DNA of 64,000 nt from Candidatus Eiseniibacteriota bacterium (GCA_043810925.1 JBDRNT010000091.1:18800-82799); one strand, 5' to 3'. Positions 24,001 through 33,000 are shown, numbered from the stretch's first letter. Made by a program: the numbers.

Positions 24001-27000
24001 AGGACGACCTGATCTCGATGGCACGTGAGGATGAACGCGACTTCCAAACGCCCGGGGACATCCTCGATGTGCTCGATCTCAAGCCGGGAGAGCGAGTTGC
24101 GGATATCGGCTCCGGGTCAGGCTTCTTCACAATTCCTGCCGCCAGGACAGTGGGCCCGAGCGGGGTCGTGTGGGCGATCGACATCTCCCGGGACATGCTC
24201 GATTATGTCGCCCGGCGCGCTGATGTATGCAATCTTGAGAACGTGCGGACCAAGAAGGTGCCCGACGATGACCCACAGCTGCCGGCCGAGGGCATCGACA
24301 CGATTCTCATGATCGACACCTGGCACTACATTCAGGATCCGAAGTACGCCATTAAGATACGGGCCGGCCTGGCTGATGGCGGGCGGGTCGTTATCATAGA
24401 CTATACGCCCAAACCCCGGGCCGAGCGACCGTGGGGGCCATCACCGGAGGACCTGTGCTCAAGGGAGTCGGTTGATGCAGACATGGCCGCGGCCGGTCTG
24501 GTACCCATCAAGGCGGTCAGCCTCCTGCCGGAGCAGTACTTTGTGATCTACGAGGCGAGATGATCGAAGTGCACATCGAGACTCTGCGGATATTCGCTGT
24601 TATTGCTATATTACTAACGGGTTTGGCCGGTGGCGTTCTTTCACGATTGATGTCAGCCGGCACCAGAAGCGAACGCCTGCTGTCCCTGGGTAATGCATTT
24701 GCCGGAGGTGTCTTTCTGGGAGCCGGTGTCATCCACATGCTGCCCGACGCACGAGATGGGTTTGCCGCAATTCAGGGCACTTCGGATTATCCGTGGTATG
24801 CTCTTGTCTGTACGTGTGGATTTCTGTTGATACTGTTCCTGGAAAAAGTCTGCCTGCCCAACCAGCACGGCCACGAGCTCCGGGTTGAGGGGGCAAACCA
24901 GAGTCTCCTCCAACCATACGTGCTCATGATGGTCCTCTCCCTCCATTCAATTATCACCGGTATTGCCTTTGGCACCGAGAGCACAGTTGCCCAGGCATCG
25001 GTAATCCTCATAGCCGTGCTCGCGCACAAGGGAACGGCGGCCTTTGCCCTGGGGGTGAGCATGGTGCGGACCGGCACCGACCGTGGTCGGTTCATCCGGC
25101 TGATAGCTTTCTTCTCCTGCATGACTCCTCTGGGTATAATCCTCGGGCGCATAGCCATGACGGCGATGAGCGATAAAGGCGCGCGGGTCTTTGAGGCTCT
25201 CTTCGACGCCCTGGCGGCCGGCACATTCATTTACGTGGCGGTGATAGACATCCTGGGAGAGGAGTTCGCACACCCGGACCGCAGATGGCTTAAACTGGGA
25301 GCTGTCTCGCTGGGACTCGGTCTCATGGCCGTTGTCGCCATATGGACATAGATCGCGTCACACCGGTGTTGCCCGCTTCAGCGCGGCAACGTCCCTCACC
25401 GCTCCGATAGCGGTGTCGATATGCTCCTCGGTGTTAAAGGGCCCGATGCTCAGCCGGACGGTGCCGTGGATCTTATCGGTACCCAGCTGGACATGAACAA
25501 ATGGGGCACACTGCAGTCCGGTACGGCAGGCGATGTTGTAGTCGACATCGAGCATGGTGCCGACGTCCGCCGCATCCCAGCCATCTACATTGAAGCTCAG
25601 CACCGCGAGGTGATCCTCAGAGCCGTCGGCACAGTGGAGCCTGACACCGTCGATTTCGGCAAGCCCGTTCCGCAACTTCTGCCAGAGTTTCATCTCCTTC
25701 GCGTAGATGTCCTCCACACCGCGCTCGAGCAACCATTCGAGCCCTGCACGCAGACCGGCGACGCCGACGGTATTGAGTGTCCCGCATTCCAGGCGGTACG
25801 GGAACTCATCCAGGTGAAACGGATGGGCCGAACGCACCCCCGTTCCCCCGTAGCGTGTACAACGGATGGGCACATCCTCACCCACGTAGGAACCGCCGAT
25901 ACCGGTGGGACCAAGCAGGCACTTGTGACCGGTAAAGGCGAGAAGGTCTATGTTCATTTCACCCACGTCGATTCTCTGGGTCCCGGCTGTCTGGCTTGCA
26001 TCGACCGCAAAGAAGACACCGGCTTCGCGGCACACCTTGCCGATCTCTCCGATCGGCTGGACCGTGCCCATCACGTTGGACCCATGGTTCACCACCACCA
26101 TTTTGGTGTTCCTCCTGATTGCCCGCTTCACCTCATCGGGGTCGACATATCCTCGATCATCGAAAGGAACATGTGTAACATCGATCACTCCCTCATGCTT
26201 CAGGTGATGAAGCGGGCGCAAAACCGAGTTATGCTCCACGTTCGTGGTGACCACATGGTCGCCCCTCTCTGTCATGCCCTGGATGATCATGTTCAGTGAA
26301 TCGCTGGCATTATAGCTGAAGGTAAGGTGGTTGCATGAGGTGCCGCCAAAGAACTCCATCAACATCTTTCTGGTGCCGAGCACCATCTCCTCGGCTTCCA
26401 GACTGGCGTCATATCCCGACCGCCCCGGATTGACACCCATCTTCTTGTAGAACTCGCACATGTAATCATAGACTTCCGGGGGTTTCGGGAAAGATGTTGC
26501 CGCATTATCCAGATAGATCATGTCCGACATGGTCGCTCCTTTAGTTCACTTGCTTTCCCAGTACGAGGGCGTCCGCCACGATCTCGGCGACGGTCTTTAT
26601 CTCCACGTTGAGTTCGTATACGCTGTTAAGCTCCATCAGCTGATCGATACAGTTGTGGCACGGGGTGGCCACGATCCGCGCCCCGGTTCTTCTTATCTGG
26701 TCCGCCTTGATCTCCCCGGCCTCGACGCGGCGGTCACGGTACTCGCCCATCGAGAGTTGGCCCCCTCCTCCACCACAGCAGTAATTGTTCGCCCTATTGG
26801 GTGACATTTCAACAAAATCCGATACCGCCCTCGCAAGCACATACCTTTGCTCTTCAATAACACCACCGGTTCTAACGAGATTGCACGGATCGTGAAGCGT
26901 GACCCGTTCTGAGTTCAGAGACGGGTCCAGCAGGATACGGCCCGAGCGAACATACCCCGCAATCAACTCGACGACGGAAAGCACAGGATAAGGATAGGCC

Positions 27001-30000: not shown

Positions 30001-33000
30001 CGGCCGTGTTGCCCGCGCAAGCCGCACGGCATAATCAACCACATGTCTCGGCACCGGTACGCGCCGGACAAGCTGCTGGAGCGCGATTATCTCCCCGGCA
30101 TCAAGAACTTGCTCAAGATCAGGCACATAAGCACTGGTCGTAGTCTCGACTATTTCGATCTCTTCGTCACTACTCGGATAGTCGACATATATGTTGAACA
30201 TGAACCGGTCGAGTTGTGCCTCCGGAAGGGGATATGTGCCTTCAAGCTCTATCGGGTTCTGGGTCGCAAGCACGAAGAAGGGCAGATCGAGCTGATAGGT
30301 TTCCCCACCGGCTGTAACCTGGCGCTCCTGCATCGCCTGGAGAAGCGCTGCCTGGGTCTTCGGGGGTGTTCTGTTTATCTCGTCGGCGAGTACGATATTC
30401 GCGAACACCGGCCCCTTGACAAAACGAAACTGCCTCCTGCCTGTGGTCTTATCCTCCTCGATGATATCGGTCCCGGTAATGTCCGCAGGCATAAGGTCAG
30501 GTGTGAACTGAACCCTGCTGAACTTAAGATCGAGGATTCGTGCGATCGTGCTCACCAGGAGCGTCTTTGCAAGACCCGGCACACCGACAAGCAGGCAGTG
30601 TCCGTCCGATAAAAGTGCGATCAGCATCTCCTCGATCACGCGGTCCTGCCCCACGATCACTTTCTTGACCTGGCCCAAGATCTTCTCGCGGGCGAGATTA
30701 AGATTCTCAACCGCCTCGATGTCTTTTGTCTCTTCCCTCACGCGCTCTCCTCCGGGATTGCTTTCCACCACGGTCCCCTTTCTACTCCATTATGCCTGAC
30801 GTTTCATCTGTGCGGACATGTCAGCCATTACAGGGAAATCGGCTTAAATGGTATGACTTTACACTCTCAAACTAACAACGACTCAAGCCCCATGTCAAAC
30901 GGTATGACAGTTACAAGGAATTCGGTGACAGTTTAGTAATTACCAGGAATTCTCAAACTGTCACCGAATTATCCTGTGACGACAGCCGGACAGTTCCAGA
31001 CACCAGGAAGAGTGGTGCTGCCGTGACACCGATTGCCTGAGGGGGTTAACCTGTACCGCTCACTCGGAGCTGAAACCGGCTTTGATGTGGCTCCAGGTCG
31101 TGCTCTCTGCGGGAGGTATCCCGGCATTTTCCACGTTAATCTTATAGATATCGTAGTTGCCTGTACGGTTTGAGAAAAACGCGATCTGGCTGCCGTCCGG
31201 CGACCACGAAGGACCAAAATCCCAGTACAGGTCCGAAGTTATGCGAGTGGCCGCGCCGCCGGTGGCAGGAACCACCCAGATGTCTGATATTCCCGAGTGT
31301 ATCGATTCGAATGCGATATAGTTGCCACAAGGCGACCATGAGGGCATCTCATCGTTGGCCGGATCGTCGGTGACCTGAGTCGCAGGCCCGCCGGCCGCAG
31401 GCATCACCCAGATGTCCACATGACCGGCGTAATCAGCCCTGAATGCAATCTGGGTACCGTCGGGTGACCATACAGGATCGTTTTCATAGCCGGTGTGCGT
31501 AGTCAGCTGAGTTGCGGGCTCGCCTGTTACAGGGATCGACCAGAGATTAGCAGGGTGAAGGGGATCTTGACCGGGTGACCACAAGGCGTTGAATTCCCCG
31601 GTTCGATCGGCGGCAAAGACGAGCTTCGTACCATCCGGCGACCAGTCCGGCCGTTCGTCGTACCTCGGCCAGGTAGTGATTTGAGTAGCGCTTCCGCCTG
31701 TCGCGGGCATCACGAATAGATCACAGACAGGATACGCAGCAAGTCCGCTGTCAAGACTGCGATCGCTCTCGAAGGCGATCTGGCTGCCGTCCGGCGACCA
31801 TGAGGCTCTCGCGTCATAACTCGTATCGGCCGTGATCTGGCTGGCGGCCCCGCCAGAAGACGACATTGTGAACAAGTCCCAGTTCCCGGAGCGGTCCGAC
31901 TCGAAGACCAGTTGGCTGCCGTCGGGGGACCAGTCGGGATACCTGTCAGTTCCCGCGGAGTAGGTAAGCCGGACGGCACCGTCGTTCGCCAGCACCACGA
32001 CCTGAAAGACGGTGAGCAAACCGAGCAAAGCGATAATGACTATAAGGTAGCTTCGAGACAAGAACATGCTGCTTCCACCTCACCTATGGGTTATAGGCAT
32101 GACCGGCCACTAAGTCTCCGGCCCCTGCAGGAGAACACTCACGCGGGTGGAGCATATCACGGCGATCGACAAACGTCAAGATAATGTTTTCGCGTATGCC
32201 AGTGGGCCATTGCTTCATGCCAATGGTAATATTAGGCGGTATGGTACAGCGTTGTATGGACTATCAATCTTTGTACGAGCTCCGTGCCGGGCCGCAGGAC
32301 CGATAGTCGGTATTGGACCGGGCCTATCTCATAAGCCCGGAGTCAAACCAGCCGTCGACACCGGACCCAGTAGCTCACATGAAAGGAGGTCACCTCAGAA
32401 CAGAAGGTCATGTTTCCGGTACGTTGCTGCCCACCCGTCCGGAAGGCCGGAATCGAGTTTGCGTTGGGCTGCGAGTGGCCGACCCGCGGTTTCCATACAC
32501 GATGCGGCTCAGATTCCAATGCAGGCTGCCTTTGGGCTTGCCTAAAGCCCGGAATTGACTTATACTGCTTCAAGTCAGGGGGAGCCTCGGTCGATATATT
32601 AAACAATATGAACATCTTGGGAATTTCTGCATTCTATCACGACAGTGCCGCCTGCCTGGTCAGGGACGGCAAGATCATATGCGCCGCCCAGGAAGAGCGG
32701 TTCACCCGTAAGAAGCACGACTTCAACTTTCCCAGGAACGCGATTGATTACTGCCTGGACTATGCCGGGGTCAAGGGCAATGATCTCGACCTGGTGGCGT
32801 TCTATGACAAGCCATTCATGAAATTCGAGCGCATACTCGAGACGTACCTCGCCTTCGCCCCGCATGGGATGCCATCCTTTATCAAGGCAATACCACTGTG
32901 GATGAAGCAGAAACTCTGGATGAAGGACCTGATACGTAGTGAGCTCGGGTACAACGGGAAGATTGTGTTCCCGGAACACCATGAGTCGCATGCCGCATCG

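Follow-up and report, generated by a model that had tools for sequence, protein, structure and literature searches.

A 64,000-nt stretch of DNA from a Candidatus Eiseniibacteriota bacterium (GCA_043810925.1 JBDRNT010000091.1:18800-82799), referred to here as the window, carries six open reading frames (ORFs), arranged head to tail on the minus strand (25358-30771), that bring a moxR-DUF58 gene pair together with a four-gene cassette for DsrC, a membrane protein, an iron-sulfur (Fe-S) protein and a cysteine desulfurase. The run opens with moxR (29734-30771; GTG start), which encodes an AAA_3 ATPase and is the first gene of an ancestral moxR-DUF58-batA operon, and continues, after an 8-nt overlap, with the gene for the vWA-fold partner of MoxR, DUF58 (28845-29741). 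The cassette begins with dsrC (28490-28807), which has an ATG start, a good ribosome-binding site and a 105-amino-acid product. It is followed by the genes for a 211-amino-acid membrane subunit with a NarI/TmcC/HmcE-like fold (27842-28477), a DsrK/TmcB/HmcF-type Fe-S subunit (26541-27854, with an alternative ATG at 27878) and, last, a cysteine desulfurase of the class-V aminotransferase type, assigned to TIGR01977 (25358-26530). Read from the sequence, the successive junctions from moxR to the desulfurase gene measure -8, +37, +12, -13 and +10 nt, and a convergent ZIP transporter gene lies 6 nt from the end of the desulfurase gene. An initial annotation, made from the sequence alone, had described six co-directional, tightly joined genes here, and every ORF, coordinate and junction matched; its identification of MoxR, DUF58, DsrC and the desulfurase was upheld by profile hidden Markov models (HMMs).

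The dsrC product scores well above the cutoffs of PF04358 (5e-35; 120.6 bits versus 24.9) and TIGR03342 (108 bits versus 53.5), and its tail, GACRIAGLPKPDGCV, has the CysB-x10-CysA arrangement (Cys93 and Cys104) and the C-terminus AGLPKPDGCV, in agreement with its initial description as a two-cysteine DsrC. DiSCo recognizes DsrC by two C-terminal cysteines (CysB-x10-CysA-x) together with AGLPKPTG-C with at most one difference (PMC8477390); the window protein shows both cysteines and a single difference, T to D. The best solved relatives are the dissimilatory DsrC proteins of Desulfomicrobium (4e-32) and Desulfovibrio (2e-30). The match to 7syb, a chain deposited as 'Sulfurtransferase' that we take to be TusE-type, is at 2e-6, and the TusE equivalog NF008562 scores 74 bits, below its cutoff of 191. 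Across 56 cassette copies neither cysteine varies, nor does the tail; the invariant PDGCV ending, where the solved Desulfomicrobium DsrC has PTGCV, would fit a different partner. An exact-sequence look-up of the window DsrC returned no record.

The Fe-S subunit matches CCG (2e-10) and Fer4_8 in Pfam and TmcB (1e-97), HmcF (1e-91) and DsrK (9e-68) in NCBIfam. All three NCBIfam scores fall below the equivalog cutoffs (324 versus 735, 305 versus 750 and 229 versus 400 bits, respectively), and the protein is, by this measure, a putative subfamily separate from the DsrK, TmcB and HmcF equivalogs. Its two [4Fe-4S] motifs (C33/36/39/43 and C103/106/109/113), an AECGH motif (C268 and H270) and the CCG motif cysteines C324, C359, C360, C399 and C402 show no variation among 82 sequences, and identity across phyla is 57-89%. 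Proteins of the DsrK/TmcB/HmcF type have two [4Fe-4S] motifs, a single five-cysteine CCG motif and a (T/G)ECGH cysteine (PMC10861901), and the Fe-S subunit has this same set, with AECGH corresponding to the (T/G)ECGH catalytic cysteine. The initial annotation had called it an HdrD-type protein with two CCG domains. The two [4Fe-4S] motifs stood, and the two-CCG assignment was rejected: Pfam finds one CCG stretch, the first half of the protein retains only the ECGH cysteine, and one CCG domain is intact. The only sequence-level match in the PDB is 9ojn (1.4e-10).

The membrane subunit matched nothing in Pfam, including the Nitrate_red_gam family PF02665 expected of the NarI-like protein first proposed, and has weak matches to TmcC (2e-12) and HmcE (1e-10); TmcC, HmcE and DsrM all score below their equivalog cutoffs (47 versus 240, 42 versus 275 and 22 versus 300 bits). 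The NarI-like fold itself was borne out by an AlphaFold model (pLDDT 87) whose top eight Foldseek matches were E. coli NarI (probability 1.00, TM ~0.54) and which also matched mycobacterial EtfD (9ojn) by fold. An hhalign comparison of the membrane family with a manually entered E. coli NarI sequence gave a probability of 4% over a 28-column stretch only, and a PDB sequence search returned only spurious designed repeat proteins, so the case for NarI homology comes from the fold and the weak TmcC and HmcE HMM matches. Two histidines, His76 and His180, never vary. At position 65, 92% of copies have His, with Tyr in the window and in the closest relative locus, L081, and position 190 is His, Tyr or Gln across the family and Tyr in the window; Met22, Tyr65 and Tyr190 in both the window and L081 stand in for the His that most of the family carries. 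This pattern suggests loss or altered ligation of one haem in these two proteins, so that one haem is plausible and a second doubtful in the window.

The desulfurase matches Aminotran_5 (5e-87) and exceeds the cutoff of TIGR01977 (425 versus 377 bits), and its pyridoxal phosphate-binding Lys203 and catalytic Cys341 are invariant in 76 sequences. The nearest solved relatives are cysteine desulfurases and SufS. The enzyme falls below the equivalog cutoffs of SufS (253 versus 475 bits), SclA (306 versus 525), NifS (175 versus 531) and IscS (169 versus 643). That the enzyme is instead a selenocysteine lyase, with DsrC and the membrane complex trafficking selenium, would accord with the rank of the SclA selenocysteine lyase as second-best NCBIfam match (2.5e-91) and with the activity of SufS/CsdB enzymes on selenocysteine, as indicated by structure names. 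We find this extremely unlikely given the SclA score so far under its cutoff, and neither selD nor selenoprotein genes recur near the 80 cassette loci described below.

To place the cassette, we compared a profile of the Fe-S protein with one genome per GTDB species and took the best 80 of 466 candidate relatives with 10-kb flanks, scoring gene presence by tblastn with the window proteins and clustering the flanking ORFs de novo for recurrent neighbours. The hosts comprise metagenome-assembled genomes (MAGs) of Bacteroidales, Rikenellaceae, Muribaculaceae, Prolixibacteraceae, Lentimicrobiaceae, Marinifilum, Ignavibacteria, Chlorobiaceae, Latescibacteria, Zixibacteria, Eisenbacteria and Phycisphaerae; the window itself belongs to a MAG of Candidatus Eisenbacteria, to judge from proteins 100% identical to its own. 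The dsrC gene lies directly upstream in 72 loci, with 4 more cut by contig ends; the membrane gene is present in 76, and a desulfurase gene is adjacent in 66 (52 downstream on the same strand, 13 convergent and 1 upstream). The recurrence of dsrC, membrane, Fe-S and desulfurase genes across phyla indicates that they form one functional unit, as originally proposed, and the cassette holds together in nearly all of the 80 genomes. It is thus widespread in FCB-group bacteria and apparently undescribed: we found no account of the four-gene cassette, or of DsrC with DsrK-like proteins in FCB bacteria, in the searchable literature, consistent with the earlier impression that the combination was new.

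The clustering yielded just one further recurrent neighbour, a small Cys-rich ORF of ~80 amino acids directly upstream of dsrC in 22 loci (in the range L023-L069, for example L027:8748-9002), including many Bacteroidota and Ignavibacteria cassettes. It has the pattern CPN..C..V...YC......W..C.R....K..L.FCPDFVLPD, matches no Pfam family and is absent from the window. Weak hints in favour of the reductase scheme proposed below are an FNR/CRP-type regulator, near the cassette in 7 loci, and a CysK-like PALP enzyme, near it in 5. In four loci a CysK-like PALP protein has a Cys-rich C-terminal extension (..KRVC.TCCDP.EC..; L008:11304-12473, L011:11297-12409, L019:12861-13952 and L021:12522-13637). 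Genes for a periplasmic cytochrome c, for JOP or for TmcD are not among the recurrent neighbours. No sulfite reductase gene is present in the 64-kb window and none recurs within 10 kb of the 80 loci, the extent covered by this look-up.

These neighbourhoods bear on another possibility, that the cassette is a TusE-like biosynthetic relay supplying sulfur for the thiolation of tRNA or cofactors, with the membrane Fe-S complex resetting or gating the sulfur carrier. DsrC and TusE form one family (TIGR03342), IscS-Tus is the classic case of a desulfurase that feeds a small carrier, and the CysK-like gene adjoins the cassette in the 5 loci noted above. We nevertheless judge such a relay quite unlikely: one cysteine suffices for TusE, whereas both DsrC cysteines are invariant here; the TusE equivalog score lies far under its cutoff; tusBCD, mnmA or a thiolation enzyme does not recur near the 80 loci; and a quinone-linked membrane anchor would be unusual for a biosynthetic relay. 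The cassette resembles the IscS-TusA-TusBCD-TusE and SufS-SufE relays in pairing a desulfurase with a small carrier protein that bears cysteine and belongs to the DsrC/TusE family, but differs from them in its two-cysteine, dissimilatory-type carrier, in the absence of TusBCD or MnmA and in the attached quinone-linked reductase.

The moxR-DUF58 pair has a separate history. MoxR (AAA_3 2e-63, AAA_lid_2 and bpMoxR) shares 97% amino acid identity with its L081 copy, and the DUF58 protein matches DUF58 (4e-51) with a vWA-fold signal. A batA-like gene (20574-22628, minus strand) encodes a 684-amino-acid BatA_N and vWA protein from an ATG at 22628; mfd is next, within a batA-mfd-PPIase-surA-pdxA run at 12838-22628. 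By their domains the three genes give the series of a MoxR-DUF58-BatA operon (an AAA_3 MoxR, then DUF58, then a BatA_N/vWA protein) and belong with the Bat or MoxR-DUF58-vWA operons, such as the Bacteroides aerotolerance operon, from which the window operon differs in being split by ~6 kb of cargo and in having a copy of a promoter-like element at batA.

Synteny separates this operon from the cassette. DUF58 homologues with 84-89% identity sit in moxR-DUF58-batA-mfd-PPIase-surA-pdxA arrays with 10-12 nt between DUF58 and batA; moxR-DUF58-batA-mfd is contiguous with this spacing on the contig carrying P0253 and in L088 and L089, moxR, DUF58 and batA are contiguous in L085 as well, and a metagenome scan with BatA found only two distant loci, with DUF58 and batA contiguous in both. 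The operon is split in the window, where ~6 kb parts moxR-DUF58 from batA, and also in L081 and L087. L081 (GCA_025774845.1), the closest relative, is collinear with the window at 87-89% nucleotide identity and has 3.96 kb between the DUF58 stop codon and a point 16 nt before the dsrC ATG, a stretch filled by a gene for a 1181-amino-acid FG-GAP/ASPIC protein (L081:3500-7045) with intergenic regions on both sides. In L087, whose DUF58 is 92% identical, the DUF58/batA junction holds other cargo, a BNR/FlgD_ig protein and an Rce1-like protein (L087:10187-13870). No recognizable mobile-element genes were found in the cargo at this junction in L081 or L087. The contiguous operons of relatives and the differing cargo together indicate that moxR-DUF58-batA is the ancestral unit and that the junction is a variable insertion site; judged by gene order, the junction is a candidate insertion hot spot in this Candidatus Eisenbacteria clade, with the dsrC cassette as one of several cargoes.

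The initial annotation had coupled the sulfur genes to the AAA+ pair, which would make all six genes one integrated system, with the MoxR AAA+ ATPase and the DUF58/vWA protein acting together as chaperones or maturation factors for a DsrC-reducing membrane complex. The tight junctions speak for this, as do the lack of a predicted terminator between DUF58 and dsrC and the likelihood of co-transcription in the window, which is without the separate upstream region that dsrC has in L081. However, MoxR, DUF58 or BatA was found within 10 kb of the cassette in none of the 80 loci; even L082 and L083, whose Fe-S subunits are 83% and 78% identical to that of the window, have unrelated cassette neighbours; in L081 another gene, with its own flanking intergenic regions, separates DUF58 from dsrC; and moxR-DUF58-batA is contiguous in related contigs. 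Synteny therefore largely refutes the six-gene system, which we hold to be very unlikely, and the apparent AAA+ coupling is best explained as an accident of insertion.

Co-transcription is a separate matter. Because about 75% of the window's genes lie on the minus strand, the co-directionality of the six genes alone is unremarkable, and we rejected shared direction as significant per se; the argument for one transcript comes from the tight junctions. A terminator scan found no terminator-like hairpin in the 37-nt gap between DUF58 and dsrC (28808-28844; fold z-score -0.43). A sigma-70 promoter scan was uninformative, with 4 sites against 5.1 expected. The six genes are likely to share one transcript in this genome, as first suggested, and, since the window lacks the upstream region that L081 has before dsrC, the cassette is probably transcribed by read-through from moxR-DUF58, a recent and local co-transcription.

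A further link to batA had been seen in a shared upstream element. The element is real: one copy, TTTGACATGGGGC..GTTGTTAGTTTGAG, lies on the minus strand at 30866-30899 upstream of moxR, with a conserved leader to ~30800, and a second lies on the same strand at 22687-22720 in front of batA. A 17-mer occurs exactly twice in the window against 0.11 expected, and ~100 nt align. The form TTTG-N21-TAnTTTG is one that we liken to Bacteroidetes-type -33/-7 promoters. Doubling of the element, with one copy ahead of moxR and one ahead of batA, is confined to the three split loci (the window, L081 and L087) and absent from the unsplit moxR-DUF58-batA loci, a distribution that fits a promoter duplication restoring expression of the displaced batA. 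Because the duplication accompanies the split of the operon, the shared element is no sign of a functional tie between batA and the sulfur genes, and that part of the initial claim falls away. Just upstream of the first copy, the 16-mer AAACTGTCACCGAATT forms an inverted pair at 30919-30970 (copies at 30919-30934 and 30955-30970; 23-nt arms, 6-nt spacer); before batA it forms a direct pair (22723-22738 and 22766-22781), and it also precedes batA in L087, at about 13950. The 16-mer may be an operator for a shared regulator. An Rfam scan of the whole window gave no riboswitch or leader match in the shared upstream element. In the batA/DUF4440 intergenic region there is also a perfect 18-nt tandem duplication, GCAATGCACTTCTTTATC x2, at 22901-22936.

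On balance, and with somewhat better than even confidence, we interpret the locus as two independent units side by side: an ordinary moxR-DUF58-batA operon and, inserted into it, a self-contained sulfur cassette that acts as a quinol-linked DsrC-recycling reductase. In DsrK-type subunits, electrons from menadiol pass through the DsrM haems and the noncubane cluster to reduce DsrC-trisulfide, with release of sulfide (PMC10861901), and a cysteine of the ECGH type bears a persulfide in a cryo-EM structure (bioRxiv 10.64898/2026.08.25.746951). Every residue that this known chemistry requires is invariant across the cassette family: CysA and CysB of DsrC; the eight cluster cysteines, the ECGH cysteine and histidine and the five CCG cysteines of the Fe-S subunit; and the lysine and catalytic cysteine of the desulfurase. 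By analogy, the cassette desulfurase would move sulfane sulfur from L-cysteine onto its own Cys341 as a persulfide and hand it to CysA (Cys104) on the flexible DsrC tail. Loaded DsrC, as a persulfide or, after attack by CysB, as a di- or trisulfide, would then dock on the Fe-S subunit, where the noncubane cluster and the ECGH cysteine would reduce it, releasing H2S and regenerating DsrC, with menaquinol electrons arriving through the haem-binding NarI-fold membrane subunit. The net reaction would be cysteine + quinol -> alanine + H2S + quinone, and the cassette could serve as an electron sink or as a controlled source of sulfide. That it constitutes a DsrAB-independent respiratory or electron-sink pathway, with DsrC-carried, cysteine-derived sulfane sulfur as terminal acceptor for menaquinol, is a more tentative proposal that we put forward with considerable doubt.

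The closest functional comparison is with DsrMK and DsrC, a minimal form of the DsrMKJOP menaquinol:DsrC-trisulfide oxidoreductase of sulfite and sulfate reducers. Common to both are a two-cysteine DsrC, a cytoplasmic subunit with two [4Fe-4S] clusters, one CCG (noncubane) motif and an ECGH cysteine, and a NarI-fold anchor. Unlike DsrMK, the cassette is linked to a cysteine desulfurase and to neither DsrAB nor DsrJOP, scores under the DsrK and DsrM cutoffs (229 versus 400 and 22 versus 300 bits), ends its DsrC in PDGCV and resides in FCB-group hosts. The Desulfovibrio transmembrane redox complexes TmcBC (of TmcABCD) and HmcEF (of HmcABCDEF) are the best-scoring NCBIfam families for both cassette subunits and share the one-CCG plus ECGH architecture, but the cassette falls below their equivalog cutoffs, has no cytochrome c (TmcA/HmcA) or TmcD partner and includes dsrC and a desulfurase gene in its operon. 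Like HdrED, the membrane heterodisulfide reductase of methanogens, and mycobacterial EtfD, a fusion of NarI-like and HdrD-like parts (9ojn), it joins a membrane b-type anchor to a cytoplasmic CCG Fe-S part; HdrD, however, has two intact CCG motifs and the cassette protein one, and the substrates of those enzymes are CoM-S-S-CoB for HdrED and electron-transfer flavoprotein for EtfD.

The likeness to DsrMK raises the question of whether the cassette is simply a minimal DsrMK with DsrC working for a sulfite reductase whose genes lie elsewhere, while the desulfurase does no more than provide sulfur for the Fe-S clusters of the complex. NifS-like enzymes are frequently dedicated maturases, the cassette DsrC is very near dissimilatory DsrC, and all DsrK-type motifs are present in the Fe-S subunit; moreover, metagenomic assemblies of Ignavibacteriae, Bacteroidetes/Chlorobi and Zixibacteria yield reductive-type Dsr proteins with DiSCo (PMC8477390). 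Set against this, sulfite reductase genes are not recurrent in the 10-kb flanks of the 80 loci, the cassette DsrC ends in PDGCV and not in the PTGCV of Desulfomicrobium, and an Fe-S scaffold gene was not found beside the desulfurase gene. Many of the hosts are Bacteroidales, Rikenellaceae, Muribaculaceae and rumen MAGs, which are not known to reduce sulfite. We therefore regard a DsrMK serving a distant sulfite reductase as unlikely.

Several considerations also weigh against the quinol-linked DsrC-recycling reductase that we favour. Nine of the 80 loci have no desulfurase gene nearby. What donates the sulfur, what form loaded DsrC takes and which way electrons flow are all our inferences, and persulfide reduction driven by quinol is thermodynamically tight. 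With His65 missing and Tyr at position 190, a two-haem wire is doubtful in the lineage of the window. The assessment of dsrAB in host genomes covers the 64-kb window and the 10-kb flanks. Co-transcription with moxR-DUF58 in this genome could, in addition, have a local regulatory consequence.

Elsewhere in the window, a run of V-type ATPase genes lies at 39662-48039 (D, B and A subunits assigned by eye from translations), and an origin-proximal set comprising parB, parA, rsmG, mnmG, mnmE, jag and yidC lies at 54976-62855; their proximity places the locus in the core chromosome, with no obvious mobile element. Three predicted secreted proteins (36166-37056, plus strand; 37066-37905 and 31060-32067, minus strand) carry a common motif that is C-terminal or nearly so. 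It reads TTWGGVKSLYR and TTWSTIKALYR at the ends of two of them, and the third has TTWSHIKAGFSSE at its end. The motif may be a lineage-specific sorting signal.

For annotation, the lesson of the locus is that moxR and DUF58 stand beside the cassette by local accident, and that this adjacency should not be carried forward as a 'system'. DsrC and DsrK-type reductases serve as markers of dissimilatory sulfite and sulfate metabolism, and DiSCo classes a DsrC as a false positive or paralogue when its genome lacks DsrAB. The pairing of DsrC and DsrK-type proteins with a desulfurase across phyla suggests a second use of the DsrC cycle that does not depend on DsrAB; such a use, if real, would extend DsrC-based sulfur chemistry beyond dissimilatory sulfite reduction. 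Should the cassette use quinol to reduce sulfur derived from cysteine, it would provide a defined biochemical test of persulfide and trisulfide handling by a single noncubane cluster, and would represent a new sulfide-forming route, an unrecognized path from cysteine to H2S in FCB-group bacteria, including the Bacteroidales of the gut and rumen.

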